From the IMG/VR virus record IMGVR_UViG_2541047680_000004: a DNA stretch of 64,000 nt. The stretch is one strand, 5' to 3'. Positions 8,301 through 50,716 of this stretch are shown one piece after another. The notes under the pieces were generated by a model. The model was not told the origin of the DNA. It made no database searches and worked only from the letters and a program-made list of their open reading frames with translations. Numbering within the stretch: position 1 is the stretch's first letter; each line of letters begins with the position of its first letter. The position numbers and the translations under genes were made by a program. This stretch comes from a virus (Duplodnaviria; Heunggongvirae; Uroviricota; Caudoviricetes).

Positions 8301-9621
8301 CTTCCGCACGGGTCGCAGCGGATTCAGCAGCAGTTTTGCTCTGAGATGCTGCCGTCGCACTGCCTGCCGCCTCTGTTGCTTTCGTGGATGCCGTCGTGGC
8401 GCTGCCCTTCGCTGCTGACGCCTGTCTGGTCGCCTCATCTTTTGAAGCAGACGCAGATGATGCCGATGACGCTGCCGAACTGGCGGACGATGCGGCTGCC
8501 GTTTTTGAGGATTCTGCACGGGTTTCCGACGCTTTCGCGTTCGTTTCGGATGTCTTCGCTGCGGAAGCAGACCTCGCTGCTGCGCTGGCCTGTTCAGTGG
8601 CTTCGCCAGCCTTCGTTGTGGCTGTTGAAGCAGATGATGCGGCACTTTCTGCCGATTTTCCGGCGGCGGTGGCACTGGCTGAGGCCTGCCCGGCACTTGT
8701 TGACGCGGCACTGGCAGACGACGCAGCCGCTGTTTTTGAGCCTGCCGCAGCCGAGGCGCTCTGTCCCGCTGCCGTTTCAGAAGACCTGGCGTTCGTCTCG
8801 GACGTTTTTGCCGCCTTCGCGGAATTTCCTGCCGCCGTTGCCGAGGAAGCGGCATTACTGGCGCTCGAGGCTGCGCTCGTTTCTGATGATTTCGCTGCCT
8901 CTTTTGAGGCCGCCGCATCCCGGGCTGAGGTGGCAGCTTCTGACGCCTTCGTGGTCGCGGTGGATGCAGAAGTGGCTGCAGATTTTTGTGACGCTGCAGC
9001 ATTCGTTTCAGACGTTTTCGCGGCACCGGCACTGGTGGCCGCCGCGCTTTTTGAGGACTCTGCAGCGGATGCACTTTGAGACGCTTGAGAGGCTTTTTCT
9101 CCAGCGGTATTGGCGCTTTCTGCTGCTGCGGCAGCACTGGCCGCCGCCTCACGAGCTTTGTCGCCAGCAGCATCAATCGCGTCAGTGTTATTTTTATACC
9201 ACTCAACGTTTTCGTTGTGCTCGTTGACGATCTGCATTAGCGGCTTAACGGTCACTTCTGTACCGTCTTCACGCTCGATTGTCACCTCATCCAGAGCAGT
9301 CAACCAACTGCGCATGGACTTGGAATCAGCCGACATACGCGACATTAGTGCTGTAAAGCGCGCGCTAAACTGTGTTAAGTCGCCTTCATAGGTCGTAATG
9401 ATTCGGCACGGAACTTCAGACTGAGTTTCGCCGGTATAGGGTTCTGAGAGAACAATGTTCGTATCACTGGTTACGCGCTTGATCTCATACAGCTTATTGT
9501 CGGGGCCAATGACGATCATCCCCGGCAACACACCATTAGCTGTTACGTTCCAGGCTGTCCCTGCCCCAACCAGAGTATTGCTGCCCTGTGTAAATGTGAT
9601 AGTACCTTCCCTGTACCACAT
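5323..9621 (-). CDS. side tail fiber with C-terminal intramolecular-chaperone (S74-type) domain
   Basis: 1432 aa; tail-fiber motifs GVVKLSSAVDSTSESLAATPKAVK and repeated NGNASTATKLQTAR blocks; C-terminal chaperone-like segment (KKDIETLQDRYADELL...YGLIAEEV); long Ala/Ser-rich tract. Confidence 0.85.
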   Translation of the reverse strand: MWYREGTITFTQGSNTLVGAGTAWNVTANGVLPGMIVIGPDNKLYEIKRVTSDTNIVLSEPYTGETQSEVPCRIITTYEGDLTQFSARFTALMSRMSADSKSMRSWLTALDEVTIEREDGTEVTVKPLMQIVNEHNENVEWYKNNTDAIDAAGDKAREAAASAAAAAESANTAGEKASQASQSASAAESSKSAAATSAGAAKTSETNAAASQKSAATSASTATTKASEAATSARDAAASKEAAKSSETSAASSASNAASSATAAGNSAKAAKTSETNARSSETAAGQSASAAAGSKTAAASSASAASTSAGQASASATAAGKSAESAASSASTATTKAGEATEQASAAARSASAAKTSETNAKASETRAESSKTAAASSASSAASSASSASASKDEATRQASAAKGSATTASTKATEAAGSATAASQSKTAAESAATRAEAAADRAEEIAGAVAMEDASLTTKGVVKLSSAVDSTSESLAATPKAVKVVNDNANSRVPSNRKINGKALTADITLTPKDIGTLNSITMSFSGGAGWFKLATVTMPQASSIVYIALIGGAGYNVGSPHQAGISELVLRAGNGNPKGITGALWKRTAVGLTNFAWINTSGDTYDIYVEIGNYATSVNIHWDCTANASVSVYTSPTYSASKPSSVTDGVVYTMYSTHQKPTPLDIGALPTTGGTVSGPLSVTGGITGTLNGNASTATKLQTARSIGGVGFDGSANINLPGVNTTGNQNTTGNAATATKLQTARKISGVPFDGSTDITLTAAHVAAFARRATGSYADADGGVPWNAESGAYNVTRTGASYILANFYTGVGSCRTLQIKAHYKNGGLFYRSSRDGYGFESGWEQVYTTGFMPQPADINAPTAAAGWLNSGNGTAFTTAQFITWLNNQGAFTNKHWIARCSWTYANNNYIDDTGCGRIDLSGSVIEVFSNKATSHYTIRVTTATTSGHGGVNNAEFIYVYNGSDYAPGWRRSYNTRNKPTASDVGALPLSGGTLSGGLTSSGEIVSKYANGFRIAYGNYGFFIRNDGGSTYFMLTASGDTLGSWNSLRPIIINNSSGVVSIGNGLNVTGGVNGSLNGNASTATKLQTARNINGVKFDGSGDININTLVSRGRVTALSGSTQGTAGIQMYEAYNNSYPTTYGNVLHMKGASAAGEGELLIGWSGTSGAHAPVFIRSRRDTTDAAWSAWAQVYTAKDSIPGVNTTGNQNTTGNAATATKLQTARKIAGVAFDGSADITLTAANLNAYTKTEVTNLLSSYASRSSLTGYSGNLDIIAETLVVKSGGSGGFAIWDIGTTTSGANMYIDPNPGINTVWRSTSSRRYKKDIETLQDRYADELLSLRPVWYRSICRGDRKDWGYYGLIAEEVGEIAPQYVHWREPTNNDSPGDISSNGMVAEGVMYERLVVPLIHHIQQLTKRVEELETKLNSPKE
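8290..9175 (-). repeat. low-complexity Ala/Ser/Thr-rich coding repeats inside tail fiber gene
   Basis: recurring KTSETNA / SASAA units in translation; GC-rich repetitive codons create long spurious ORFs in other frames. Confidence 0.7.
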
Positions 9622-9664
9622 GTTGAATATGCTCCTTGATTTGGTGGGCTATCCTTGCCCCCAT

Positions 9665-9683
9665 TAAGTGTGTACCTACTTAT
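9665..9683. promoter_or_regulatory. family-2-like dyad (TAAGT..ACTTA)
   Basis: TAAGTGTGTACCTACTTAT in the J/tail-fiber intergenic gap. Confidence 0.25.
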
Positions 9684-9712
9684 TTTTACCGATATAAATA
9701 TTTTTTTCTACA

Positions 9713-32160: not shown

Positions 32161-32427
32161 TTACATCACCAGTAACTTCGCTTTGGCTCGACCTAAAGTG
32201 GTTAACCCAAGAGTTCGGCGGTGATAGCGATTGTCACTGCGTTGGCGCGTATGCCCTTTCTCCACCAGCCCCTTTTTTATCAGAGCGCGAATTGAGAACT
32301 GGATACTTTGCTTGGTTGTCTTGTACGGCAAAACTTCAAGCAATTCGTCCAGGTCAAGTAGATGACCTCGCTCATAACCGAGATTGAGCGTTTTGATGAT
32401 GTCCTTTTGTTTATCGGTTAACGTCAT
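32161..32427 (-). CDS. small winged-helix-like DNA-binding protein (candidate)
   Basis: 88 aa; helix-turn-wing-like pattern TKQSIQFSIRALIKKGLVEK and basic C-terminus. Confidence 0.4.
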   Translation of the reverse strand: MTLTDKQKDIIKTLNLGYERGHLLDLDELLEVLPYKTTKQSIQFSIRALIKKGLVEKGHTRQRSDNRYHRRTLGLTTLGRAKAKLLVM

Positions 32428-32436
32428 GGCAAATCC

Positions 32437-33327
32437 TTATGCCGGTAAAGCAATTTCTAACGGTTTATCCAAAGGTTGTTTGTCGAATGCCAGCAGTGGC
32501 AGCGTGTCAGGCAGTCGACGGCCAAAGTCAGGGTTTCGGTACACACCATACAACGGAGACGTAAAGCTCAGGTTGTGAATGTCCTTGAGCAGCTTCACAA
32601 TGCTGGCCTCGTCCACCAGACTGTCGGCAATGTCCTGAATCGTCGTGCCACGATTCCGCCCAGCTTTTGCCAGGGAACTGTTCTTGTGGTAGTCCGCCAC
32701 CAGATCACGCAGTGCACGGCGACGACGAGACTCGCTCATTGCGAACAATTCTTTGACGATCGCCTCGTTATCACCCGGGTCGGAACGGAAATGGCGCTGG
32801 AATACACGCAGTGCACTTTCATAGCTCTTCGGTCGCTCAGGGCGGATGAACTTAAACCCTGCTTTCATGGCGAAGGGATTGTATTTGCTCATCGAGGACT
32901 GGATCTCAATGATTGGCCGGTCATGCATCCTGCTAACCAGGTTAATCATTCGATAAGAGACGCCTACGCCACGATACTGAGTATCCACAACTGAGCGACT
33001 GATCACCGCAAAGTTGTTATTCACGTACCGACCCCAGTACTGGTTAGCCACGGTGGTATTAGTGGTTGGTTTCAACTTAGGAAACATGCGGTGGCGAGGT
33101 GCCAGCAGTAGTTTCGGGTAAGCCATAACCACGACGCCCACCAGACGGTCATCAAGTTCGCAGCGATAGTAAGTTGGCGCGAAAGGTTTGCCGTCTGTTT
33201 TGTAGTGAAGCGACTTAAGAGCGTGCCAGTCCTCTACAGTTCCCTTTGTGACAGTCATTCGCTCCAGAAAGTCCAGATGACGCGGAAACTCTTCAGGGCG
33301 GTAGCGTTTAATGATGATGTCCGTCAT
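32437..33327 (-). CDS. GNAT-like acetyltransferase domain protein with C-terminal extension
   Basis: VVDTQYRGVGVSYRMI (R-x-x-G-x-G-like) and NPFAMKAGFKFI resemble GNAT motifs A and B; 296 aa. Confidence 0.45.
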   Translation of the reverse strand: MTDIIIKRYRPEEFPRHLDFLERMTVTKGTVEDWHALKSLHYKTDGKPFAPTYYRCELDDRLVGVVVMAYPKLLLAPRHRMFPKLKPTTNTTVANQYWGRYVNNNFAVISRSVVDTQYRGVGVSYRMINLVSRMHDRPIIEIQSSMSKYNPFAMKAGFKFIRPERPKSYESALRVFQRHFRSDPGDNEAIVKELFAMSESRRRRALRDLVADYHKNSSLAKAGRNRGTTIQDIADSLVDEASIVKLLKDIHNLSFTSPLYGVYRNPDFGRRLPDTLPLLAFDKQPLDKPLEIALPA

Positions 33328-33989
33328 AAATGAACCTCATCATGACTACCATTGTGATATTCCACCTTCACGCGTTCTTTGTAGTGCTTGGTGATCTGCA
33401 TATCCGGGCGCAGCGCGTTCTTCAGGTCTTCGTGAGTCGTCGCCACCATTACCGTCGCACCAACCTTTCGAGCGGCACGCTGGAGGTTAGATGCCACAAC
33501 CTGAGCGGTTACACGGTCTAGAACAGCACCGAACTCGTCAGCAGCCCACACTTTAGCGCCTGACTCAATCAGTTTGGCAATCTTGAGACGATATTTCTGA
33601 CCGTCTGACATTTCAGAAGGCTTGCGAACAAACAGATATGCATCGTTCAGACCAGCCATAGATAACAACCCAAGCGCATCGCTGGTCGTTTTGCCCAACT
33701 GATCGATGACGTTAACCTCATTATCGAAGGTAAAATCATCGATGGAGGCTACAGACAGCCCTTCATCCTTCATCTGTCGTTGCAACTCGCGCAGCACAAC
33801 GGATTTGCCGGAACCGGATTGGCCGGTGATGTACACCACATCGCCCTGCTTCACTTCCAGCTCCAGATTGTCGTAAAGCGTCCACTCTTTTTCGTCCAGG
33901 CCAAGCCCGAACGACTCAGCGATTTCCAACGTGCGCGTGGTTTTATTTACGCGTGTCTGAAACGATACGTTGATGATGTATTTGCTCAT
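33324..33989 (-). CDS. small ABC-type ATPase
   Basis: Walker A GQSGSGKS, signature-like MSDGQKYRL, Walker B VWAADEF, H-loop TTHE; 221 aa, no transmembrane partner adjacent. Confidence 0.8.
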   Translation of the reverse strand: MSKYIINVSFQTRVNKTTRTLEIAESFGLGLDEKEWTLYDNLELEVKQGDVVYITGQSGSGKSVVLRELQRQMKDEGLSVASIDDFTFDNEVNVIDQLGKTTSDALGLLSMAGLNDAYLFVRKPSEMSDGQKYRLKIAKLIESGAKVWAADEFGAVLDRVTAQVVASNLQRAARKVGATVMVATTHEDLKNALRPDMQITKHYKERVKVEYHNGSHDEVHL

Positions 33990-34654
33990 ACAGCCATCTC
34001 CCCGGAAGAGATCTTCTCCGCATATGCCACAAATGCGTCTACCCCGCTTTCTCCCGTCATTTCTTCCATGTGGGCAAGCAAATCACCAACAACAATGGCA
34101 GAGCCAGCAGGAAGCGTTTTAAAGCCCAATACGTCGACAACACGTACTTCTTCCGCTGCAACTTCACGACTGATCTCGGTGTGTTCATCCTTCTGTCGTT
34201 TAGTTTCTTCGCCAAGATCGATAACTAGCGAGTCGGTGTCCATTTCTTCTGTCATGCTGCCAACGAGAACATTCAACTCACGCTCTTCAAAGCCGAAAAC
34301 CTCGATATCGTCCAGAACAAGCGACTCAAGCTCTTTCTGTAGCTTAATTGCATCGTAATCAATGCTGGCAAGTCGGTTATCTTCAAGGCGCTTCGCACGA
34401 ACCTCGTCATCACTGAGATCATCGCGAACAATAACCGGTACGCGCTCAAGTCCAGCAAAAATTGCAGCCTCACGGCGGCCGTGGCCAGTAATAATTACGT
34501 CGTTCTTATCGACCGTAATTGGCTGGTCAAATCCGCGCTTTTTAATGGCTGCGGCTAGATCTCGGATCTGCTGTTCATCATGCTTTTTGGCATTCATCTC
34601 ATAGGGAATAAGATCTGCCGGGTCGCGATATACGATTTCAAACTTTTTGGTCAT
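33986..34654 (-). CDS. ParB/Srx-like N-terminal domain protein
   Basis: motif ITGHGRREAA (GxxRxxA-type ParB box); start set at internal Met overlapping upstream stop. Confidence 0.7.
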   Translation of the reverse strand: MTKKFEIVYRDPADLIPYEMNAKKHDEQQIRDLAAAIKKRGFDQPITVDKNDVIITGHGRREAAIFAGLERVPVIVRDDLSDDEVRAKRLEDNRLASIDYDAIKLQKELESLVLDDIEVFGFEERELNVLVGSMTEEMDTDSLVIDLGEETKRQKDEHTEISREVAAEEVRVVDVLGFKTLPAGSAIVVGDLLAHMEEMTGESGVDAFVAYAEKISSGEMAV

Positions 34655-35334
34655 TACATACGCTCCTTGTAGTAGTCGACCAGCCACACCAGAGCCTCAC
34701 CAGCGTTCTCCATTTCATTACCGGTGTTAATAGCCTGCTCTTTGATGATGTTTTTTATGGTTTCTGCAACACGATCTGACGCATCGAAAGTTACTTTGAA
34801 GCGCATGGTCTGATGTTCCGCCCCCACACGTTCGGTTTTCTCTCGTTTGTCGGTATCGACAGGCTCATCACTACCACGAGACAACGCCTCCAGTGCTTCA
34901 AGGTCGATTGCCGCCTCTTTTGCTAAAACCATCGAGATTTCGTCGTCATACGGGGCGATTTCAGACAGTTGATAGTCAAGTTCTGACTGAATTTCTTCAA
35001 TGAAGCGTTGCAATGCGATTTGGTCGTCTTCACCGTATCGCTCGTTGTCCACCAGTGACATCTGTTTAGCTACGACATCGCTAATTTTGCCCACAGAAAG
35101 CACTGGAACCGTTGAAATTCCTTGCTCAATAGCGGCACGCCAGCGATGTTCGCCGCCGAGGATTTCAAAAAATCCATCTTCAAGTTCACGAGCCAAAATT
35201 GGCTTAAAAAAGCCCAATTTTTCGATAGAACCTTTCAGTTTTTCAAAATTCTGCGCACCAACCGAATTGGTGTTCCAGGTATTCGGGCGAAGGTTGGCAA
35301 CATCAACCTGCAAAATCGTGATTTTTACATCCAT
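34654..35334 (-). CDS. ParB/Srx-like N-terminal domain protein
   Basis: motif ILGGEHRWRAA; first gene of the minus-strand operon; start codon uncertain (ATG at 35334 or GTG at 35352). Confidence 0.7.
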   Translation of the reverse strand: MDVKITILQVDVANLRPNTWNTNSVGAQNFEKLKGSIEKLGFFKPILARELEDGFFEILGGEHRWRAAIEQGISTVPVLSVGKISDVVAKQMSLVDNERYGEDDQIALQRFIEEIQSELDYQLSEIAPYDDEISMVLAKEAAIDLEALEALSRGSDEPVDTDKREKTERVGAEHQTMRFKVTFDASDRVAETIKNIIKEQAINTGNEMENAGEALVWLVDYYKERM

Positions 35335-35352
35335 TTTATTGCTACAATCCAC

Positions 35353-35370
35353 TAAGTAATCACTTACTTA
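35353..35370. promoter_or_regulatory. family-2 dyad TAAGTAA-TCAC-TTACTTA in divergent promoter region
   Basis: perfect 7-4-7 dyad between the ParB-like operon and the helicase operon. Confidence 0.35.
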
Positions 35371-35416
35371 TTATAATAGCCAAATAACATACAAAAGGCA
35401 CTAAGGAAAGAGGTTT

Positions 35417-36976
35417 ATGACTGTTCGGATTGTATCTAACGCAGTTAATGCGCTTATTTCTGGCGCAGATGACAAGGTAAAGCAACTGGTGCAACAGATG
35501 TTGAGCTACGAAGTCGAGACTGGCGACTGGAAGGGCACAAGCACAATGTTCAACTGGAGTAAAAACTCGTTCCCTGCAGGCTTTGCCAAGCCTGTAGCGG
35601 CGAACTTGAACAAGGCGGGCATCAAATGTGTTCATATCCGCAAAGACAAAGCCCCGGCGCTTGGAAAACCAAATCCGGCGGTTAACCCATTCCCATACAA
35701 TCCTGATTATGCGTATCAGGATCAGACTGTGGAAACACTGGTTCGAGAGGGAATGATGATTGCGCAGATCGCTACTGGTGGCGGGAAATCTAACGTTGCC
35801 TGCAAAGCAGCTGCACGTATCGGTCGAATGACATTATTTTTAACAACCCGCTCTGTTCTGATGTTTCAAATGGCCGAAAACTTCCAGAGATCCATCGACT
35901 ACCGCGCCGAAAATGGCGAACCGTGGTTAAAAGACCAAAAGGTTGGAGTCATTGGCTCGGGTGAGTTCCAGGTATCACGACATATCAACGTCGCTACAGT
36001 TCAAACTCTTGCAAGTTTCCTCGAAGAACCACCACGCGATGCAACACCAGATAAGAAAAGCTACCACCTCAAACGTCGGGAGTTGGTGAAACGCTTCCTT
36101 TCAAGTGTCTCTCTTCTTATTCTGGAAGAGGCGCATGAGTCTTCAGGCTCAAATTTCTATGACATCGCCAGATTATGTGTGAACGCAGACTATCGTCTGG
36201 CGCTTACAGCCACGCCGTTCATGAAGGATTCGACGGAAGCCAACATGCGCCTGATGGCGGTGGCCGGGCGAATTGAAATTAAAGTCACAGAAAAGTACCT
36301 GATTGATCGAGGCATTCTGGCAAAGCCGTACTTCCTTTATCATAAAGTTGCCTACAAGCCAGACGAGGCCAGAATCAAGGCCGAACTTGCCAACAAACAC
36401 CTCAATTTTAGAGTTGGTATGAGCACCGCCTACCAAAAGGCTTATCAGTTGGGGATCGTGTATAATTTGGGACGTAACGAGGCCATTGTTCGCGAAGCAT
36501 TGCTCTATAAGCAACATTCTCTCAATTGTATGACTCTGGTTCGTCTTAAACGCCACGGGCAAATCCTGATGGAAATGATGAAAGAGTCCGGCCTTAGAGT
36601 TGACTTCATCTATGGGGAATCTAACCAGGCGACAAGGCAAGCAAAGCTGAACAGTTTAGCGTCTGGAGAAATAGATGTTTTAATAGGCTCGACTATTCTG
36701 GATGTCGGTGTTGATGTGCCAAGCGTTGGTGCGGTCATTCTTGCTGGTGGTGGGAAAGCAGAAGTTGAAATGAGGCAGCGTGTCGGTCGTGGCTTACGAG
36801 CAAAAAAAAATCAGGCAAACGTGTGTTTTATCACTGATTTCATTGACATTAGCAACAAATACCTGTTGTCTCACTCTTATGAGCGAAAACACATCATCGA
36901 CACCACACCTGGCTTTGCAGAAGGTGTATTGCCTATTGATGGAGCATTCGATTTTGGAGTTCTGAAACGAGATTAG
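35417..36976 (+). CDS. superfamily-2 DEAD/DEAH-type helicase
   Basis: motif I ATGGGKS, motif II ILEEAHE, motif III TATP, motif VI QRVGRGLR; about 100-aa N-terminal extension. Confidence 0.85.
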   Translation: MTVRIVSNAVNALISGADDKVKQLVQQMLSYEVETGDWKGTSTMFNWSKNSFPAGFAKPVAANLNKAGIKCVHIRKDKAPALGKPNPAVNPFPYNPDYAYQDQTVETLVREGMMIAQIATGGGKSNVACKAAARIGRMTLFLTTRSVLMFQMAENFQRSIDYRAENGEPWLKDQKVGVIGSGEFQVSRHINVATVQTLASFLEEPPRDATPDKKSYHLKRRELVKRFLSSVSLLILEEAHESSGSNFYDIARLCVNADYRLALTATPFMKDSTEANMRLMAVAGRIEIKVTEKYLIDRGILAKPYFLYHKVAYKPDEARIKAELANKHLNFRVGMSTAYQKAYQLGIVYNLGRNEAIVREALLYKQHSLNCMTLVRLKRHGQILMEMMKESGLRVDFIYGESNQATRQAKLNSLASGEIDVLIGSTILDVGVDVPSVGAVILAGGGKAEVEMRQRVGRGLRAKKNQANVCFITDFIDISNKYLLSHSYERKHIIDTTPGFAEGVLPIDGAFDFGVLKRD

Positions 36977-36978
36977 TT

Positions 36979-37257
36979 ATGAGTGAAAAGAAAACAACTT
37001 ACTGTCAGGTAGCATTGTCTGATAAGGCCAATGACAAACTTGGAAAGTTTCAAGTGAAACTAAAAGAAAAAAATATCAAAATGTCTAAGGCTGAAGTCAT
37101 AAATACCATTCTGGAACAATTGACAATGGCCGACTTTGACAAGGTTATATCTTCTGTCGGGGCTTCCGCTAAGACTCGTGAGAAAATCATGCGTATCTAT
37201 GAGAACTCTAATATGACAAAGGAAGATCTCGAAACGCTATTAAGCAGATTAAAATAA
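36979..37257 (+). CDS. hypothetical small protein
   Basis: 92-aa ORF tightly following the helicase gene. Confidence 0.35.
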   Translation: MSEKKTTYCQVALSDKANDKLGKFQVKLKEKNIKMSKAEVINTILEQLTMADFDKVISSVGASAKTREKIMRIYENSNMTKEDLETLLSRLK

Positions 37258-37325
37258 TCACGCTATCAATTAGGGAGACAAAGATGAAGTCTCCCATACT
37301 GTTCACTTTCTGTTCTAAAACTATC

Positions 37326-37748
37326 ATGAAATACTCGCTTCTCCCTCTACTAACGTTACCAGTGTTGATGCTTACCGCGTGCCAATCACGCCCAATATCA
37401 ATCCATGACGCCAAACCAGCACCGCAGGCCAAAGTGTTCAAGTATCAAAGCGCAGCGCCAGCTACGTTGGTGGTAATGAGAGACACAGGTTTTGTAGGAG
37501 CTGGATGTGATGCTTCCATTTTCATCAACGGCGAAACTGTCGCAAAACTGGCTACAGGCGAAAAAGCGACTTTCCATTTAAATGCCGGAGAATTAATTGT
37601 GGGTGCATCTCTTGAAGGTGCAGGTTTATGTGCTCTAAACCCCGCTCGTCAAGAGCGAGAAACGACTCTGAAGAATGGAGACACAAAAGCGTTCAGGGTG
37701 TTCACCAGCAATTCTGGTGACATCGACATTCTGCCAACAACTCTGTGA
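37326..37748 (+). CDS. lipoprotein
   Basis: signal peptide MKYSLLPLLTLPVLMLTAC with lipobox LTAC; start set at MKYSL. Confidence 0.5.
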   Translation: MKYSLLPLLTLPVLMLTACQSRPISIHDAKPAPQAKVFKYQSAAPATLVVMRDTGFVGAGCDASIFINGETVAKLATGEKATFHLNAGELIVGASLEGAGLCALNPARQERETTLKNGDTKAFRVFTSNSGDIDILPTTL

Positions 37749-37752
37749 TGAC

Positions 37753-38277
37753 ATGACAACCAAAGATATTACCTACGGTATCCAAGCTGAACTCTGGCCG
37801 CGAGATTACACTAACGTTGAAAAACTACTGATGTTCTGGCGCAGAGAACAAATTCCTGTAAGGGTCACTCTCGAAGATGGCCAGGCGTTTTGCATGTACG
37901 TTTATGGCCTCATGCCATCTCGTAACAAAGTTGACCTTTGCCCAGCCCCTTTTGACAAAGAAAATCGTATAAGGCTCCCACTTGAACGCATTAGTACAAT
38001 TGAATCAGGTGTGGTTGACAGTATCGCTCACGATTTCAAAGGTCGACTAACAGTTCACCCTGATTATGTCGATAATCGGCCATCACGCCGCGATTTTTTT
38101 GCAATTTGCAACCAAGCCTACAAAGCAAACAAATCTATAAGGGTGTACATGGCGGATGGCCGTGAAATTGAGGGGGTGTCAGCAGGCGCAGATGCTTGTC
38201 AGGTTACACTACGTGTCGAGAACGGTAGAAAAATAGTTGTTTTGTTCGATTGGGTTGAACGAATTTTGCCTTTTTGA
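37753..38277 (+). CDS. hypothetical protein
   Basis: 174 aa from MTTKDITYG; no motif recognised. Confidence 0.45.
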   Translation: MTTKDITYGIQAELWPRDYTNVEKLLMFWRREQIPVRVTLEDGQAFCMYVYGLMPSRNKVDLCPAPFDKENRIRLPLERISTIESGVVDSIAHDFKGRLTVHPDYVDNRPSRRDFFAICNQAYKANKSIRVYMADGREIEGVSAGADACQVTLRVENGRKIVVLFDWVERILPF

Positions 38278-38280
38278 GTT

Positions 38281-38589
38281 ATGAAATCGATATTGTTACC
38301 ACCATTATTTTTACTTTGCTCAGTTGCGGCAAATGCAATGGACTATAAGCCTGTCATTCAGTCGCTGATGAATGACGTGTGCTCAACGTCTCAGAATGTA
38401 TCAGTTTGCATGTATCAATTTTCGGCAGCCGTAAAAGCAGGAAAAGCGATAGGTGAGAATGTGGAACTGTGTAAGAAAGTGGCAAATGAAGAACGGGCAA
38501 TGTTGGATTGCGAATCTAGCGAGTCATCGGCACAGTTCGTTGATGCGCTATTTGACACCAATCGTAAGGCTGTAGAGTCTGTTCAATAA
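38281..38589 (+). CDS. small secreted protein
   Basis: signal peptide MKSILLPPLFLLCSVAANA; several Cys in mature part. Confidence 0.45.
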   Translation: MKSILLPPLFLLCSVAANAMDYKPVIQSLMNDVCSTSQNVSVCMYQFSAAVKAGKAIGENVELCKKVANEERAMLDCESSESSAQFVDALFDTNRKAVESVQ

Positions 38590-38604
38590 ATCTATAAGGT
38601 TAAT

Positions 38605-38631
38605 AACCGGCTAAGTCCGGTTATTATTTTT
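38605..38631 (+). terminator. rho-independent terminator
   Basis: stem AACCGG/CCGGTT with loop CTAAGT followed by TTATTATTTTT. Confidence 0.6.
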
Positions 38632-40024: not shown

Positions 40025-40029
40025 AATCG

Positions 40030-40054
40030 AGCGCCCACTATGGGCGCTTTTTTC
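40030..40054 (+). terminator. rho-independent terminator
   Basis: stem GCGCCC/GGGCGC, loop ACTAT, then TTTTTT. Confidence 0.65.
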
Positions 40055-40075
40055 GTTTCCAATACTCCCACCAAA

Positions 40076-40101
40076 ACGCGCCAATGATGGCGCGTTTTTT
40101 A
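40076..40101 (+). terminator. second tandem terminator (bidirectional shape)
   Basis: stem ACGCGCCA/TGGCGCGT, loop ATGA, T-run after and A-run before. Confidence 0.6.
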
Positions 40102-43294: not shown

Positions 43295-43329
43295 TAAACA
43301 ACATGTTTTCTTGATGGTGTTATTATCGC
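43295..43329. promoter_or_regulatory. family-1 operator/promoter element
   Basis: TAAACAACATGTTTTCTTGATGGTGTTATTATCGC. Confidence 0.5.
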
Positions 43330-43444
43330 AATAACGCACAGGCGAAAAAGGATTTTATTCCGGTGAATATGGTTTTGGCAGTGAGTTTTCAGGTTCAGTA
43401 CCGAGTATACTTTTTACATTATTCTGATTTAGTGGCCGAAGGTG

Positions 43445-43452
43445 GCTGGTGG
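43445..43452 (+). other. Chi sequence GCTGGTGG
   Basis: exact octamer about 200 bp from iteron cluster 2. Confidence 0.45.
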
Positions 43453-43644
43453 GCAGAATAATCCTCTCCCCGAAAACCTACTGAAATCGATTGTGACCCG
43501 TTGGCTGTCTGGCACAATTACGCTGTAGCTGGGCATTCAGAGGGAATCCAGCGGTAAGCAAGTCCGCCTACGTGAGCGCCTCTCTTCTTCCCGCACATTA
43601 CAGGTGGGTAGCCGCAACTCTCCCTCTCGCTATACCGGTACGCC

Positions 43645-43777
43645 GCCGTTCCTGAACCGGCATCGAGCCTTTTCCCGAAATCCACACAGGCAACTCGACC
43701 GTTTCCCTGAAAACCTCCAGCCGTTCCCCGAAGGCAACCCAGCCTTTTCTGTAGCGGGATGCAACCTTTTCCCTGTA
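43645..43777. repeat. iteron cluster 2 (six direct repeats, about 22-bp phasing)
   Basis: units at 43645, 43666, 43697, 43719, 43741, 43763 (e.g. GACCGTTTCCCTGAAAA); extra copy near 43470; same family as cluster 1. Confidence 0.65.
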
Positions 43778-44100
43778 TGGACCGAAGGCTGACCGTAGGG
43801 GTTTTACGGGGGATAAAATCAGGAGTTGAATAAATACGAAAAAGGAGGCGACACCCCTCCTTCCCTCCCCACTTATACATACCTGGCTTCTTCGCTATAC
43901 ATGTTGTGTTTTCTTCGTGTTTTATCTGTCTCAACCTCTCTATAGGCGTTAATGCTCACTCCTTCCAGAACCTTCTATACGGCGACTATTTCTGTTGGTG
44001 AATTGGGTGTGTTGTTCTCTCTGTCGGTGTATGTGGTTTCGTTCGTTTTGCGGTGGTTCTTCTATGGGGTGTTCTCGTCGTTTTGGTGATTGTTCTTCTC

Positions 44101-44460
44101 CGTGTATGGAGTAATGGCAGGTGGGCGATTCCTTTCGTTATTGTGTTTGAGTTGTTTGTCTGGAGTGTGTGAAAGGCTTTTGTAGTTATTCGTGTATTGG
44201 GTAATGGCGTTTCCCGTGATTGTTATGTTTCGTGTCTTTTGGGATTGAGAGAAACCTTGCGGTTACAGGCTTCGTTGGGGTTTCAGTGATTCTGGTGTTT
44301 CTTCGCTGTTTGGGTAATGGCGTGTCGTGGGTATCGCGCGTATGAATGTTTTCGGATTGCCTGTGAAAGTTAGGTTGGTTGTCCGGTAGCCTGGGGAGAA
44401 GAGGTGGGTCTTTTCGGTAGCCTGCCATAAAGAGGTTGGTTGTTTTGGGTAATGGTATAT
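44101..44460. repeat. direct repeats in GT-rich ORF-free region
   Basis: CGTGTAT(T)GG(A/G)GTAATGGC at 44101, 44191, 44304 and degenerate copy at 44437; strong G+T excess on plus strand across 43960-44700. Confidence 0.55.
44385..44455. repeat. about 70-bp G/T-rich repeat, copy B
   Basis: pairs with 41208-41280. Confidence 0.5.
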
Positions 44461-44701
44461 GTGTTATTTAGTTGTTTTGTTATGCCTGAAAATAAGTTGT
44501 TTATATGGTTGTGTAACGCAACGGGAGCGATTTTGAGCGTGTGTTTTTGTTGGTAGTGTGTTGAGTCGTCTGTGGTGAAAATTGGACGCTGTGGCGCTAT
44601 CTGCTGCGTAGAATTACGGGTATAAGAAGTGATGTGTGATAACGTCAATTTTTTAGACCAAATCGGGAGAAAGCGTTGATGTTTCGTTGATCTGTTATTT
44701 A

Positions 44702-44728
44702 GTTGTTTTCTTATTGGTATAAACAACC
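44702..44728. promoter_or_regulatory. family-1 half-site element
   Basis: GTTGTTTTCTTATTGGTATAAACAACC; would drive minus-strand transcription into the GT-rich region. Confidence 0.35.
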
Positions 44729-44845
44729 ATAACCTATTGATATTTAATGATGTGATTGCTGGTATGGGAGGGGAGTAGTGGCGATCAACGGGTTCTTATA
44801 GAAAAGAATCAAATTGTGACCGCCATTATCAATAAGTTGCAACCG

Positions 44846-45451
44846 TTAGTTGTTCAGATAAACATTTGGAACACGGACGTAGAACTTACTGTTACCGGTA
44901 AGTTCCAGAGTAATGTTAATGTCATTACCATTGTCTAGTGTAGCCGTCGCTCTATAGAACTTATCAGTTACCTTTTCGTCAATATTAACCTTGATGCATT
45001 TCGCCGCAGTAGAACCATTATGCTCTTTCAGAATAGTTGTCACGACAGGACATGCGGCTTCCTCAATGACGCCATCTTCCTGTTTCGGTATTACAATGAA
45101 GAATACGTAAGCCAGCAAGGTAACGACTATAATAAATGGCAGTCTACTGCTCTTTGTTATAGTCGCACGCTTCCATAGGTAGATTGGCATGAAAACTATT
45201 CCCCATAAAATAGCAGGTGGCTCATAGCCGGATTCCGAAATCGCCATTCTGTCAGCCACTAATAATCCGATGGCAGCTAAACTTCCAATTAATACAGCAT
45301 AATTTGCATACTCTTCGTTCGGAATGCCGAAGCAAATTGGAATAAAAGCTAAAATCCACGCATAAGTGTTATTCAAAGGTTTTTTTTGTTGGTTATTGGT
45401 TTCCATCACATCCATCTCATCACTTAAATTACTTGTATATATTATCAACAT
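44846..45451 (-). CDS. membrane protein (three or four N-terminal TM helices plus soluble C-terminal domain)
   Basis: hydrophobic segments WILAFIPICF, VLIGSLAAIGLLV, AILWGIVFMPIYL, FIIVVTLLAYVFFIV; AT-rich segment. Confidence 0.5.
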   Translation of the reverse strand: MLIIYTSNLSDEMDVMETNNQQKKPLNNTYAWILAFIPICFGIPNEEYANYAVLIGSLAAIGLLVADRMAISESGYEPPAILWGIVFMPIYLWKRATITKSSRLPFIIVVTLLAYVFFIVIPKQEDGVIEEAACPVVTTILKEHNGSTAAKCIKVNIDEKVTDKFYRATATLDNGNDINITLELTGNSKFYVRVPNVYLNN

Positions 45452-46210: not shown

Positions 46211-48244
46211 TTACTTAACCTGGTGGCCAGGTTTAGCACCAGCATCCGGGCTTAACAGGAAGATATCTTTCCCGCCGGGGCCAGCAGCCATCACCATGCC
46301 TTCAGAGATACCGAAGCGCATTTTACGCGGAGCCAGGTTAGCCACCATAATTGTGTGACGACCAATCAGTGCCTGTGGGTCTGGATAAGCAGAACGGATG
46401 CCTGAGAAGACATTACGCTTTTCACCACCGAGATCCAGCGTCAGGCGCAGCAGCTTGTCAGAACCTTCAACAAACTCTGCGTTTTCAATCAGCGCCACGC
46501 GCAGGTCAACTTTAGCGAAGTCGTCAAAGGTGATGGTTTCCTGAATCGGGTCGTCTGCCAGTGGGCCAGTTACCGGTGCGGCTGTGGCTTTCACTTCTTC
46601 TTTGGATGCTTCCACCAGTGCTTCCACCTGTTTCATATCGATACGGTTATACAATGCCTTGAACGGATTCACTTTATGGCCCAGCAGCGGTTGCTGGATA
46701 CCATCCCAGGTCAGTTCTGTATTCAGGAATGCTTCTGCACGTTCAGTCAGTTTCGGCAGTACCGGTTTCAAGTAAGTCATCAGCACGCGGAACAGGTTAA
46801 TGCCCATAGAGCAAATCGCCTGCAGATCGGCATCGCGTCCTTCCTGCTTCGCCACCACCCACGGAGCCTGTTCATCAACATAGCGGTTAGCCAGGTCAGC
46901 CAGTGCCATGATTTCACGGATAGCTTTACCAAATTCGCGGCTTTCCCATGCTTCGCCAATCACTTCAGCGGCATCAGTAAAGGTTTTGTACAGTTGCGGG
47001 TCAGCCAGTTCGCTTGCCAGCACGCCGTCAAAACGCTTGTTGATAAAGCCTGCATTACGGGAGGCCAGGTTAACCACTTTGTTCACGATATCGGCATTCA
47101 CGCGCTGAACGAAATCCTCCAGGTTGAGATCGATATCATCAATGCGCGAAGAGAGTTTCGCAGTGTAGTAGTAACGCAGGCTGTCGGCGTCAAAATGATT
47201 CAGCCAGGTGCTGGCTTTAATAAAGGTACCGCGAGACTTAGACATCTTCGCGCCGTTCACCGTCACATAGCCATGAACAAACAGGTTGGTCGGCTTGCGG
47301 AAGTTGCTGCCTTCCAGCATTGCTGGCCAGAACAGACTGTGGAAGTAAACAATATCTTTACCGATGAAGTGGTACAGCTCGGCGGTGGAGTCTTTCTTCC
47401 AGTATTCATCGAAGCTTACGCTGTCGCCGCGCTTGTCGCACAGATTCTTGAAAGAACCCATATAGCCAATCGGCGCATCTAGCCAGACGTAGAAATATTT
47501 ACCCGGCGCGTTCGGAATTTCAAAACCGAAATACGGCGCGTCGCGGGAGATATCCCACTGTTGCAGGCCAGATTCAAACCACTCCTGCATTTTATTTGCC
47601 ACCTGCTCCTGCAACGCACCGCTGCGGGTCCATGCCTGCAACATTTCGCTGAAAGAGGGCAGATCAAAGAAGAAGTGTTCAGAATCACGCATTACCGGCG
47701 TAGCGCCAGAAACCACCGATTTCGGCTCGATCAATTCAGTCGGGCTGTAGGTCGCGCCGCAGACTTCGCAGTTATCGCCGTATTGATCCGGGGATTTACA
47801 TTTCGGGCAGGTGCCTTTCACAAAACGATCCGGCAGGAACATGCCTTTTTCCGGGTCGTACAACTGAGAGATAGTGCGATTTTTAATAAAACCGTTCTCT
47901 TTCAGGCGAGTATAGATAAGCTCAGACAACTGACGGTTCTCTTCGCTGTGCGTCGAGTGATAGTTGTCATAGCTGATGTTAAAGCCTGCGAAATCAGTCT
48001 GGTGTTCCTGACTCATTTCGCCAATCATCTGCTCCGGTGTGATACCAAGTTGCTGTGCTTTCAGCATGATCGGCGTACCGTGGGCATCGTCGGCACAGAT
48101 GAAATTAACCTCGTGGCCGCGCATTCGCTGGTAACGAACCCAGACATCAGCCTGGATGTGCTCCAGCATATGGCCGAGGTGGATTGAGCCGTTAGCGTAC
48201 GGCAGCGCGCACGTCACCAGAATTTTCTTCGCGACTTGGGTCAT
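46211..48244 (-). CDS. metG: methionine--tRNA ligase
   Basis: 677 aa from [25 protein letters not shown] (HIGH-type) with KMSKS; C-terminal tRNA-binding domain; near-identical to enterobacterial MetG as I recall it. Confidence 0.97.
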
Positions 48245-48401
48245 AGTAGGCATTACTTCTTTGTAGTGAAAAGGGGCTTGATAGTAACAAAATGGCCTTA
48301 TGTCTGCCATGTGATAACAGCATTTCTCATAAATGATTAAATGTCGCAGCTGGAGTACACTACAAGGCGACAATTGCGCAAATTAAAATAAAGGAGACGG
48401 G

Positions 48402-49502
48402 ATGAGCGAGTCCAAATCGCCGGATGCCCTGAGAGCAATGGTAGCCGGTACGCTGGCTAATTTTCAGCACCCAACCCTGAAACACAACCTGACTACGCTT
48501 AAAGCGTTACACCATGTTGCGTTGATGGATGACACACTGCATGTCGAACTAATCATGCCTTTCGTGTGGAATAAGCCTTTTGAAGACCTGAAAGAGCAAT
48601 GTAGTGGTGATCTGCTCCGTATCACTGGCGCAAAGGCTATTGACTGGAAGCTGTCGTACAACATTGCCACGCTTAAGCGCGTCAAAAACCAACCAGGCAT
48701 TAATGGTGTTAAGAATATTATCGCCGTAAGCTCAGGCAAGGGCGGTGTAGGCAAATCGTCCACAGCAGTAAACTTGGCACTGGCTTTGGCTGCTGAAGGT
48801 GCGAAAGTTGGTATTTTGGATGCCGATATCTATGGTCCATCAATTCCAACCATGCTGGGCGCGGAAAACCAACGTCCAACCTCACCGGACGGTACTCACA
48901 TGGCACCTATCATGTCTCATGGCCTGGCAACCAACTCTATTGGTTATCTGGTCACCGACGACAATGCAATGGTGTGGCGTGGACCGATGGCCAGCAAGGC
49001 GCTGATGCAGATGTTGCAGGAAACACTGTGGCCTGATCTGGACTATCTCGTTCTCGATATGCCGCCGGGCACTGGTGATATTCAATTGACGCTGGCGCAG
49101 AACATTCCTGTAACTGGTGCGGTTGTGGTAACTACGCCGCAAGACATCGCGCTGATCGATGCGAAGAAAGGCATTGTGATGTTCGAAAAAGTCGAAGTGC
49201 CGGTACTAGGTATCGTCGAAAACATGAGTGTGCATATTTGCAGTAACTGCGGTCATCACGAGCCAATTTTTGGCACCGGTGGCGCACAGAAACTGGCCGA
49301 GAAATACAACACGCAGTTGTTAGGCCAAATGCCACTTCATATCTCTCTTCGTGAAGATCTGGATAACGGAACACCAACCGTTATTAGTCGTCCAGATAGC
49401 GAATTTACGGCTATTTATCGTGACCTCGCAGATCGCGTTGCTGCCCAAATGTATTGGCAAGGTGAAGTAATACCTGGCGAAATCGCATTCCGCGCAGTGT
49501 GA
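48402..49502 (+). CDS. apbC: Fe-S cluster carrier ATPase Mrp/ApbC
   Basis: P-loop SSGKGGVGKS, CxxC motif (CSNCGH); divergent from metG as in E. coli. Confidence 0.95.
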   Translation: MSESKSPDALRAMVAGTLANFQHPTLKHNLTTLKALHHVALMDDTLHVELIMPFVWNKPFEDLKEQCSGDLLRITGAKAIDWKLSYNIATLKRVKNQPGINGVKNIIAVSSGKGGVGKSSTAVNLALALAAEGAKVGILDADIYGPSIPTMLGAENQRPTSPDGTHMAPIMSHGLATNSIGYLVTDDNAMVWRGPMASKALMQMLQETLWPDLDYLVLDMPPGTGDIQLTLAQNIPVTGAVVVTTPQDIALIDAKKGIVMFEKVEVPVLGIVENMSVHICSNCGHHEPIFGTGGAQKLAEKYNTQLLGQMPLHISLREDLDNGTPTVISRPDSEFTAIYRDLADRVAAQMYWQGEVIPGEIAFRAV

Positions 49503-49503
49503 T

Positions 49504-49530
49504 AAAAAGGTGGTGCAATGCACCACCTAA
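49504..49530 (-). terminator. terminator hairpin between convergent mrp and UmuD'-like gene
   Basis: inverted repeat GGTGGTG / CACCACC with U-run on minus-strand RNA. Confidence 0.5.
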
Positions 49531-49539
49531 ACAGTTCTC

Positions 49540-49929
49540 CTACATCACAGGACAATCATCAAACTCGCCACTTCTTGCGTCGTTGATAATGTGAGTGATC
49601 ACACCAAACACGGCATTGCTGCCCGTGCATCCATCATCATCCTTTGGCAATGCTTCCTTCTTACCAGTTCTTAAATCCTCCAGATGCTGACGTGGATACT
49701 TCCGGTATCTTTTTACGCGATATTCCCCATCCAGAGCACATACAAGAAGAGATCCATCAACAGGAGTCAGTGAGGAATCGACCACCAGCAATGCACCCTG
49801 CAATATTCCCTCACGATGATGACTATCAGCCGCCCTCATGAAGTAGGTCGCTGAAGGATGTCTAATTATCTGCTGATCAAGAGAAATACGGCTCTCAGCA
49901 TAATCCGCCGCAGGAGAAGGGAAGCCCAT
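49540..49929 (-). CDS. UmuD'-like S24 peptidase-fold protein (HumD-like)
   Basis: begins MGFPSPAADY, aligning with UmuD from the RecA cleavage site onward; Ser (ADSH) and Lys (RVKR) positions conserved; in-frame TAA 15 nt upstream of ATG; RBS AAGAGG. Confidence 0.85.
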   Translation of the reverse strand: MGFPSPAADYAESRISLDQQIIRHPSATYFMRAADSHHREGILQGALLVVDSSLTPVDGSLLVCALDGEYRVKRYRKYPRQHLEDLRTGKKEALPKDDDGCTGSNAVFGVITHIINDARSGEFDDCPVM

Positions 49930-49945
49930 AATACTCGCCTCTTAA

Positions 49946-49965
49946 TGCTGTATATGCATACAGTA
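49946..49965. promoter_or_regulatory. LexA (SOS) box
   Basis: TGCTGTATATGCATACAGTA = CTGT-N8-ACAG, 16 nt upstream of the UmuD'-like start. Confidence 0.8.
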
Positions 49966-50260
49966 TATGTTGAAGCTATATATTTTTGAACTCTATCTCT
50001 TAAAAAAGATGTTAATAAGATGCTAACTATTGAAAGGCATAAATATATACAATTCCAACAAACGTTATTTTTAACAAATTTTTACTTCCCATTGACTTTC
50101 CCAGACTCCTTGTCTGAACTAATGTCCGCGGAAACCACTTTTTCCTTTACGAGTTATCCACAAAGTTATGCACTTGCACATAGTCTCTATAAATCCTATC
50201 TTAATTCGCAAGACACTGATGTTGCGGTATTGTGGGTACATTTGGTTAAAAACGGACATT

Positions 50261-50293
50261 AAAAAAGCCCAGTTGACTAGGCTGGGCTTTTTA
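50261..50293. terminator. bidirectional rho-independent terminator
   Basis: AAAAAAGCCCAG..CTGGGCTTTTT. Confidence 0.65.
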
Positions 50294-50299
50294 AAAGGA

Positions 50300-50716
50300 A
50301 ACAGAGTTTGCGCCTCTGTTCCTGAGCCATAAGTATCTGGCGACTGAGCTAAGATTAACCGAATGTACTGGATTCATCAAGAAACGTTGAGCCGTCATGC
50401 TAGGTAATAATGACCATTTACCAAACATCGTTGTTCTCAAAGAAGATTTAAGTCCAGGTTTTTGGTGACTCTAAAACCTTACCTTAACTCGAAATCGTGC
50501 CGTAAGTATCTGGCGACTACAGATATTGCAACTGCAAAGGCAAGCTCAAAGGTATTTGCAGCTAGGTGCGATAAAACTAAGTGAGGCCTATAGTGCTTAA
50601 CTTACTTTTCAAAATCGTGCCGCCTATGTTCGCAATCATCGAAGCGATCATTGAGTACGTCAACCAGCGCCCATAATGCTAGTTGTTACCGGCCCCATCC
50701 AAATGGGGCCATTTTA
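50300..50716 (+). ncRNA. candidate structured noncoding region / small RNA locus
   Basis: ORF-free; direct repeats TAAGTATCTGGCGACT (50330, 50503) and AAATCGTGCCG (50492, 50612); hairpins; plus-strand terminator GGCCCCAT..ATGGGGCC then ATTTTATTG at 50690-50716. Confidence 0.25.

Follow-up and report, generated by a model that had tools for sequence, protein, structure and literature searches.

A probably mosaic segment of an SSU5-type phage-plasmid with a UvsW-like helicase, a FljA-like protein and variable envelope genes

Introduction

In phage T4, UvsW unwinds R-loops, regresses replication forks and carries out branch migration, and a small gene, uvsW.1, lies directly downstream of uvsW. 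FljA-type proteins are reported to prevent translation of fliC mRNA (PMC2652032). Relatives of UvsW and of FljA sit together in the five-gene block described here, which occupies positions 35417 to 38589 of a stretch of the virus record IMGVR_UViG_2541047680_000004 (Caudoviricetes); the whole stretch analyzed, 64,000 nucleotides long, is called the window throughout. The block encodes a helicase, a conserved 92-amino-acid protein, a lipoprotein, a FljA-like protein of 174 amino acids and a small secreted protein of 102 amino acids.

The window matches Escherichia coli plasmid pECOH89 at 99.9% identity across its full length, is near-identical to numerous other non-mobilizable plasmids of 95-115 kb, and is about 79% identical to Salmonella phage SSU5. 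The figures for pECOH89 and SSU5 place it, as judged by identity, among the phage-plasmids of the SSU5/pHCM2/pMT1 type. This family is well sampled, and the block is a known, annotated stretch of it whose sequence is already published: it corresponds to SSU5_124 to SSU5_121 in SSU5 and to CYRAN_118 to CYRAN_114 in Cyrano, and is found also in Salmonella Typhi pHCM2, Yersinia pestis pMT1 and E. coli pECOH89. Annotations already in use in the family include "helicase / UvsW helicase", "lipoprotein" and "repressor of phase 1 flagellin", and every gene of the block belongs to a described family or to a phage orthologous group without assigned function. The family-wide layout is a divergent ParB-ParB-ABC operon on one side and, on the other, the helicase gene, the 92-amino-acid gene, an optional lipoprotein gene, the FljA-like gene and a 216-amino-acid gene.

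A first-pass annotation, made from the letters of the window, had described the block as an operon diverging from a ParB-like operon and had likened its combination of a cytoplasmic helicase with envelope-targeted proteins to defense or exclusion modules. The comparisons below point to a plainer reading, which we consider probable: the segment is a mosaic of ordinary genes expressed during lysogeny and does not constitute one functional system.

Core genes and cargo

The five co-directional open reading frames (ORFs) proposed in the first-pass annotation are present at the coordinates it gave, and RefSeq calls the same coordinates in pECOH89:

35417..36976, + strand: helicase of superfamily 2 (SF2), assigned to the UvsW family, 519 amino acids
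36979..37257, + strand: conserved protein of 92 amino acids, PHROG 1466
37326..37748, + strand: lipoprotein, 140 amino acids; the start is the second ATG of the 37284 ORF
37753..38277, + strand: FljA-family protein by homology, 174 amino acids; the start is M27 of the 37675 ORF
38281..38589, + strand: small secreted protein, 102 amino acids

Gene distribution was counted as public plasmid records, with tblastn used for the FljA-like gene. The helicase gene occurs in 1002 plasmid records, about 850 of them enterobacterial, the 92-amino-acid gene in 824 and the FljA-like gene in 835. Counts for these three genes, in the same order, are 346, 340 and 345 in Klebsiella, 228, 230 and 229 in Escherichia, 92, 92 and 92 in Enterobacter, and 62, 62 and 62 in Yersinia. 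The lipoprotein gene is found in 421 records and the 102-amino-acid gene in 259, as against about 830 for the core genes. The helicase, the 92-amino-acid gene and the FljA-like gene are the core of the block; the lipoprotein and the 102-amino-acid protein are variable cargo.

Among the relatives, the pair formed by the helicase gene and the 92-amino-acid gene is the only part of the block with fixed order and orientation. The interval between the 92-amino-acid gene and the FljA-like gene (37258-37752 in the window, and its equivalents in loci L003, L012, L015 and L016) is a hot spot for cargo, occupied as follows:

Window, SSU5 and pMT1: lipoprotein gene, same strand
Klebsiella locus L012: lipoprotein gene, opposite strand
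Cyrano (L003): two unrelated genes
Klebsiella locus L015: three other genes

In L016, the most divergent Klebsiella relative, a single 116-amino-acid gene separates the helicase gene from the FljA-like gene. Relatives have the envelope genes in inverted form, carry others in their place or lack them, and for this reason we regard these genes as not functionally tied to the helicase.

Between the window and Cyrano, amino acid identity and synonymous divergence (dS) are 99% and 0.09 for the helicase, 85% and 1.1 for the 92-amino-acid protein, and 78% and 1.4 for the FljA-like protein. The disparity between a dS of 0.09 for the helicase and one of 1.4 for the FljA-like gene is the reason for reading the block as a recombination mosaic, and it indicates a putative recombination breakpoint near the 3' end of the helicase gene.

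The helicase and the 92-amino-acid protein

The N-terminal extension of about 100 amino acids that the first-pass annotation had attributed to the helicase is real: matches to the Pfam models ResIII, DEAD and Helicase_C, all above their cut-offs, begin at residue 99, and the protein also matches PHROG 16, "DNA helicase". A UvsW_N-like domain takes up the N-terminus, to about residue 95, and two RecA-like domains make up the rest, with motif I TGGGKS at 120-125, motif II EEAHE at 237-241, motif III TATP at 264-267 and motif VI QRVGRGLR at 454-461. Invariant across 37 homologs are T120, G121, G123 and K124; E237, E238, A239, H240 and E241; T264, T266 and P267; and Q454, G457, R458 and R461.

A family profile built from 37 full-length homologs and compared with the PDB returned T4 UvsW (2oca) first, at E = 2.8e-27, ahead of XPBII at 2.4e-24; a single-sequence search had ranked XPBII first and UvsW sixth. 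The profile alignment spans UvsW residues 15 to 464 of 510 and so takes in WDGR, a motif of the N-terminal domain; homologs about 50% identical over their whole length match the Pfam model UvsW_N (PF21241) with 27.9-34.2 bits against a cut-off of 25.3. The domain search suggested for the helicase N-terminus therefore yields a recognition at the level of the family, through the profile and these homologs; since the alignment runs from UvsW residue 15 and the homologs pass UvsW_N, the extension is assigned by homology to the N-terminal, DNA-binding domain of UvsW and the protein to the T4 UvsW family. About 8 residues of the domain consensus are deleted in the lineage of the window. The Cyrano ortholog is annotated "UvsW helicase".

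By homology, the helicase would remodel branched DNA and RNA-DNA hybrids through R-loop unwinding, fork regression and branch migration. Elsewhere on pECOH89, outside the block, a DnaB-like helicase gene lies beside a primase gene, and DnaE, ligase, RNase H and exonucleases are also encoded; the helicase of the block would support this replication and recombination machinery of the element itself (DnaB-like helicase, primase, DnaE, ligase and RNase H).

The first-pass annotation had raised the prospect that the helicase is the standard replicative helicase of the phage family, which would make it an expected component unconnected with its downstream neighbors. Half of that description holds: the gene is a standard core helicase gene of the family, as a replicative helicase gene would be. 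The other half fails. The protein is an SF2 enzyme of UvsW/XPB-like type, neither a hexameric DnaB nor a member of SF4, and the DnaB-like helicase, primase and DnaE of pECOH89 are encoded just outside the window. We rejected the replicative identity on account of that DnaB-like gene and consider it the least probable of the explanations weighed here, close to negligible. Because DnaB-like helicase, primase and DnaE are encoded elsewhere on the plasmid, the helicase of the block is an accessory enzyme, predicted to remodel DNA, and not the replicative helicase.

The 92-amino-acid gene starts 2 nucleotides past the helicase stop codon and is probably translationally coupled to the helicase gene. 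Its product falls in PHROG 1466, which has no known function, and its family is very small, at just 18 protein clusters. Searches of Pfam and NCBIfam found no domain in it, the AF2 structure model is all-helical and poor, with a predicted local distance difference test (pLDDT) score of 54, and phmmer and profile searches of the PDB returned designed helical repeats only, with nothing resembling UvsW.1 or a ribbon-helix-helix protein. In enterobacterial SSU5-type elements the gene nonetheless accompanies the helicase gene as part of the core. Since both genes are transcribed when a relative is in the lysogenic state, as described next, the pair probably also serves replication or repair in the plasmid state.

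Transcription and the divergent control region

Expression data were taken from the RNA-seq published for Cyrano in E. coli LF82 (PMC9928086, S1 Table), where the median background of the prophage is 9.8 in overnight lysogeny broth (LB). In that medium, normalized reads were 46 for the helicase gene CYRAN_118, 114 for the 92-amino-acid gene CYRAN_117 (about 12-fold over background; the authors call it a moron), 29 for CYRAN_115, a cargo lipoprotein gene unrelated to that of the window, and 18 for the FljA-like gene CYRAN_114; elsewhere the log2 values were 7-8, 8.6-9.9, 8-9 and 7-8, respectively (PMC9928086). CYRAN_119 to CYRAN_121, on the ParB side, gave 5-9.5 in overnight LB and log2 values of about 2.6-5.2 elsewhere, low in all five conditions (PMC9928086). 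In this relative, the block is among the few regions transcribed in lysogens, and the ParB side is silent.

The divergent arrangement of the block with respect to two ParB_N genes, noted in the first-pass annotation, is present in the window. The suggestion attached to it, that the two sides are co-regulated, does not fit the Cyrano lysogens, in which the helicase side is expressed and the ParB side lies near the background. Because the helicase side is transcribed there and the ParB side behaves like late genes, simple co-regulation is disfavored, and the helicase side is probably not co-regulated with the late side. On the - strand of the window, positions 32161-35352 encode two tandem ParB_N proteins, an ABC-type ATPase, a 296-amino-acid protein, whose Cyrano annotation is MK0520-like ABC ATPase/acetyltransferase, and an 88-amino-acid DNA-binding protein. 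This operon runs on, along the same strand, into terminase, portal, capsid and tail genes, and looks more like the head of a module for late functions or packaging than like a system for plasmid partition.

Three features outside the coding sequences bear on how the block is read:

35335..35416, no strand assigned: divergent intergenic control region of 82 base pairs (bp), 29% guanine plus cytosine (GC), with the dyad, a TATAAT and the helicase ribosome-binding site
37273..37295, + strand: short hairpin, GGGAGAC-9 nucleotides-GTCTCCC, in the 68-nucleotide gap before the lipoprotein gene
38601..38631, + strand: intrinsic-terminator-like hairpin found by a terminator scan, a 10-bp stem followed by TTTTT

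The dyad that the first-pass annotation had placed at 35353-35370 is there, as TAAGTAA-tcac-TTACTTA, with 7-bp arms and a 4-nucleotide spacer. It is statistically weak: comparable dyads occur at 1.3 per kb in the window, and one arises in 5.4% of shuffles of the 82-bp region. A dyad with the same center is kept in relatives, reading TAAGTACTTA in pMT1 and in the Klebsiella element. In an alignment with Cyrano, SSU5, pMT1 and the Klebsiella phage-plasmid, the right arm, ACTTACTTA, is invariant and the left arm variable, and the -10 box and the helicase 5' untranslated region are nearly invariant. That -10 box is a perfect TATAAT at 35372-35377, directly downstream of the dyad, within ATTATAAT, and reads the same on both strands. 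At about 35403-35413 lies the ribosome-binding site of the helicase gene, AAGGAAAGAGG. The region also holds a direct repeat with a spacing of 49 bp, made up of CACTAAGTAA at 35350-35359, which overlaps the dyad's left arm, and CACTAAGGAA at 35399-35408, which overlaps the ribosome-binding site; the repeat may be due to chance.

A dyad so placed invites the proposal that the 92-amino-acid protein is a small DNA-binding autoregulator that acts on it, setting expression of the helicase side and perhaps holding the late ParB side off. Such a role would suit a core gene that always adjoins the promoter-proximal gene and is the most transcribed of the block in Cyrano lysogens, and the dyad, with its conserved center, does overlap the spacer upstream of a perfect -10 box. 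It is harder to reconcile with the searches of Pfam, NCBIfam and the PDB, in which no DNA-binding domain was detected, and the structure model is too unreliable to help. The dyad, besides being statistically weak, is not conserved in its left arm, and its right arm is invariant among lineages whose versions of the protein have diverged strongly, to 52-62% identity. We regard this autoregulation as improbable.

The gaps between the five genes are 2, 68, 4 and 3 nucleotides. The hairpin at 37273-37295, in the 68-nucleotide gap, has a predicted fold of -12.4 kcal/mol (z = -1.1), no better than shuffles; it may attenuate transcription or stabilize the upstream RNA, a suggestion for which the evidence is weak. 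A weak promoter-like site lies within the block at 37229-37258. The hairpin at 38601-38631 folds at -12.7 kcal/mol (z = -4.5), with none of 200 shuffles as good, and is probably the 3' end of the unit. The block would accordingly be read rightward from the 82-bp divergent region, where we place the promoter by inference, to that terminator. As for the co-transcribed operon of the first-pass annotation, a single rightward unit is plausible from the layout of this element; as a property of the family it does not stand, since gene order and orientation are not fixed among relatives.

The FljA-like protein

The first-pass annotation listed the 174-amino-acid ORF, correctly, as a protein of the block and overlooked its homology to FljA. 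The protein matches the Pfam model Flag1_repress (PF03614) with 281.7 bits against a cut-off of 24 (E = 2.5e-84), over profile positions 1-170 of 170, and aligns from residues 1-171 with residues 4-172 of the authentic Salmonella "phase 1 flagellin gene repressor FljA" at 34% identity (E = 4e-36). On these matches it is assigned as a full-length member of the FljA family. A scan of genome contigs with an alignment of the FljA-like protein found only 6 close loci, its peptide patterns being too specific for Salmonella fljA; authentic FljA was reached through a search of representatives and a cluster look-up. The family is tiny: an exhaustive HMMER search of 1.84 billion proteins yielded only 29 representatives. 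Its largest reservoir found in this analysis is these plasmids, with 835 records. The reading frames are intact and the ratio of nonsynonymous to synonymous substitution (dN/dS) is 0.09-0.14; the gene is under purifying selection.

Two tandem Sm/Hfq-like domains are predicted in the protein, which is presumed to be an RNA-binding post-transcriptional repressor. A search of the viral fold library BFVD returned only single-domain Sm-like phage proteins, and the match to the Pfam Hfq model, at 19 bits, falls below the cut-off of 27. The predicted action of the protein is the one that FljA has on fliC, a block on translation of the mRNA it targets. Homology makes host fliC the default target; because the gene is strictly conserved in hosts without flagella, a different RNA, of the phage-plasmid or of the host, is about equally likely.

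If host fliC mRNA is the target, the protein would be a lysogenic-conversion factor and lysogens would be less flagellated, with a changed H antigen and altered TLR5 exposure, energy saved, and protection from phages that use flagella. We take this to be a real possibility, somewhat short of an even chance. It draws on the full-length homology to Salmonella FljA and the Pfam membership, on the fit of the predicted Sm/Hfq-like fold with RNA binding, and on transcription of the ortholog in lysogens, which is stronger in cell-culture medium and in macrophages. FljA homologs on other mobile elements, the S. Typhi linear plasmid pBSSB1 and the E. coli flk island, repress fliC (PMC2652032, PMC3378880). 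Identity to FljA, on the other side, is only 34%, and the annotation of the whole of pECOH89 includes neither a flagellin gene nor an invertase, in contrast to the setting of every fljA, flkB or fljA-z66 that has been studied. The hallmark of FljA, co-transcription with an alternative flagellin gene (fljB, flkA or fljB-z66), is absent, the neighbors here being the lipoprotein and the small secreted protein genes. A search of the window for a decoy or target with similarity to the 5' untranslated region and start region of E. coli fliC gave chance matches of at most 15 nucleotides.

The hosts themselves also speak against a flagellin repressor. The gene occurs nearly one to one with the helicase gene in 345 Klebsiella and 62 Y. 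pestis plasmids, with intact frames and dN/dS of about 0.1, and Klebsiella and Y. pestis are not known to make flagella. S. Typhi CT18, with pHCM2, and E. coli LF82, with Cyrano, are presumably flagellated and motile in spite of carrying the gene.

Because the family is so small, its reservoir of 835 plasmid records so large, and the gene retained in Klebsiella and Y. pestis under purifying selection with no linked flagellin gene, we tentatively raise a further reading: that FljA proteins are primarily core post-transcriptional regulators of SSU5-type phage-plasmids, acting on a non-flagellin RNA of the element or its host, and that the phase-variation repressors of Salmonella and E. coli, fljA and flkB, are offshoots that were captured from these phage-plasmids. 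We consider this possible but less likely than not. No paper on the function of the phage-plasmid FljA-like gene or of the helicase was found in the available literature.

Envelope proteins and the defense proposal

The lipobox MKYSLLPLLTLPVLMLTAC (LMLTA|C) of the 140-amino-acid protein and the signal peptide MKSILLPPLFLLCSVAANA (...SVAANA|M) of the 102-amino-acid protein, both reported in the first-pass annotation, are confirmed on reading the translations. In the lipoprotein, the lipobox LTA|C is followed by Gln at position +2, from which sorting to the outer membrane is expected under the +2 rule. The protein belongs to PHROG 890, "lipoprotein" (E = 9e-52), is weakly DUF2846-like (17.8 bits in Pfam, below the cut-off of 34.3 bits), and is 27% identical (E = 1e-16) to the lipoprotein of the Klebsiella phage-plasmid, whose gene is on the opposite strand. 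The 102-amino-acid protein belongs to PHROG 9536, which has no known function; it has a signal peptide ending in ANA and four conserved cysteines, and is 30% identical (E = 5e-7) to a Klebsiella protein of 99 amino acids with the same cysteine pattern, encoded downstream of the FljA-like gene. It is absent from SSU5 and pMT1. Both proteins are most likely cargo of the lysogenic-conversion or exclusion type.

A much stronger proposal would make all five genes one anti-phage defense or exclusion system, in which the cytoplasmic helicase acts with periplasmic or outer-membrane proteins. All five do run in one direction with short gaps and share one terminator, and they are expressed in lysogens of a relative. 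With an SSU5-like Klebsiella plasmid, moreover, three lytic phages plate 10- to 100-fold less well and plasmid uptake is also lower, effects that the authors credit to restriction-modification with no gene mapped (PMC8969562). The helicase also has a weak match in PADLOC-DB 2.0, to PbeA at 79 bits. That match is the best of a set of partial ones to the SF2 core (the others being to a type IV restriction enzyme, DpdF and DruE), and those in NCBIfam are likewise generic and far below family cut-offs, as with dnd_restrict_1, at 59.6 bits against a cut-off of 600. PADLOC-DB 2.0 gave no match for the lipoprotein, the FljA-like protein or the 102-amino-acid protein, and two chance-level matches for the 92-amino-acid protein. 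Helicases of the UvsW type are common in large phages, and in hundreds of lytic phages, as in Acinetobacter phage-plasmids, the UvsW-family helicase occurs without any partner gene of the block. Some relatives retain the helicase gene yet have the envelope genes inverted, exchanged for others or missing, and the genes of the block differ in recombination history. We rejected the defense module on the PADLOC result and the variation in synteny. What the first-pass annotation saw as a module of helicase and periplasmic proteins is a core UvsW-type enzyme with generic defense matches next to variable envelope cargo; the block is not a defense system, and we give a five-gene system very little credence.

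Other features of the window

Several observations lie outside the block. At 46671-49962 the window encodes a full-length methionyl-tRNA synthetase (metG) and apbC, an Fe-S cluster carrier, adjoining a gene for an S24 LexA-like peptidase (50000-50389) whose Cyrano ortholog is the top-expressed gene in lysogens and is probably the repressor. The region 43300-44850, about 1.5 kb without an annotated gene in pECOH89, is extremely asymmetric between the strands, with a GC skew of +0.37 and an AT skew of -0.31 at 44001-45000. Degenerate repeats, for example TGT(A/T)T(T/G)GGGTAATGG, are dispersed in it, and TRF found no tandem array. The region might act in cis, for instance as an origin or a packaging site. 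At 8001-9000, between annotated tail fibre and tail protein genes, GC content rises sharply to 0.58 with an AT skew of -0.29, and the PLSDB table lists no coding sequence at 8259-9712. Two strong, back-to-back terminator-like hairpins stand at 40029-40098, in the gap after the run of + strand genes, and overlap a sub-threshold Rfam match on the - strand to the small RNA Hrs1 (29 bits, gathering score 56), probably by chance; an Rfam scan of 32-42 kb gave only sub-threshold chance matches.

Discussion

The reading of the segment as a mosaic of ordinary genes expressed in lysogeny has several points to contend with. Transcript evidence for the block comes from the relative Cyrano and not from this element, and in the 82-bp divergent region no complete sigma-70 promoter passed a consensus scan. 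The N-terminus of the window's helicase, searched by itself, does not match Pfam UvsW_N. For the 92-amino-acid protein no relative of known function was detected, so that what pairs it with the helicase is co-occurrence, and the FljA-like protein may act on host fliC mRNA or on another RNA. Lastly, some gene on these elements excludes phages (PMC8969562), and the gene for the lipoprotein or for the secreted protein may be the one.

Two consequences seem to us to matter most. The helicase gene is labeled just "DEAD/DEAH box helicase" across about 1000 public plasmids; UvsW-type would be the more precise name, and it points to roles in R-loop and fork processing in the plasmid state. A FljA homolog, meanwhile, is core and lysogeny-expressed in a clinically widespread family (pHCM2, pMT1 and the pKpn-type plasmids of Klebsiella) that includes elements of non-flagellated hosts, which conflicts with its annotated function. 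Resolving this conflict could reveal either a new regulatory RNA-protein pair or an effect of these elements on motility or immune evasion.

Set against known systems, the block is familiar in its parts. Superinfection-exclusion lipoproteins, such as Llp of T5 and Cor of phi80 and N15, resemble the window lipoprotein, which is small, expected in the outer membrane, encoded by a temperate element and transcribed, by the data of a relative, in lysogens; no sequence relationship was found, and the likeness is one of analogy. T4 UvsW, like the helicase of the block, has an N-terminal domain of about 90 amino acids followed by two RecA-like SF2 domains, at low sequence identity. The settings differ, the window helicase belonging to a temperate phage-plasmid and being expressed, by the data of the relative, in lysogeny. 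The position of the 92-amino-acid gene mirrors that of uvsW.1, although no similarity to it, or to any solved structure, is detectable. Hfq and its Sm-like kin are subunits of a homohexamer, whereas the FljA-like protein has two predicted Sm-like domains in one chain; the likeness comes from the predicted fold, with no significant sequence similarity. The fljA-z66 gene of pBSSB1 is, as the FljA-like gene is, carried by a mobile element, but Salmonella FljA, flkB and fljA-z66 have a linked flagellin gene or invertase, which the FljA-like gene does not. Its place in the core of a family of phage-plasmids, and its retention in Klebsiella and Y. pestis, hosts without flagella, also set it apart from those studied relatives.

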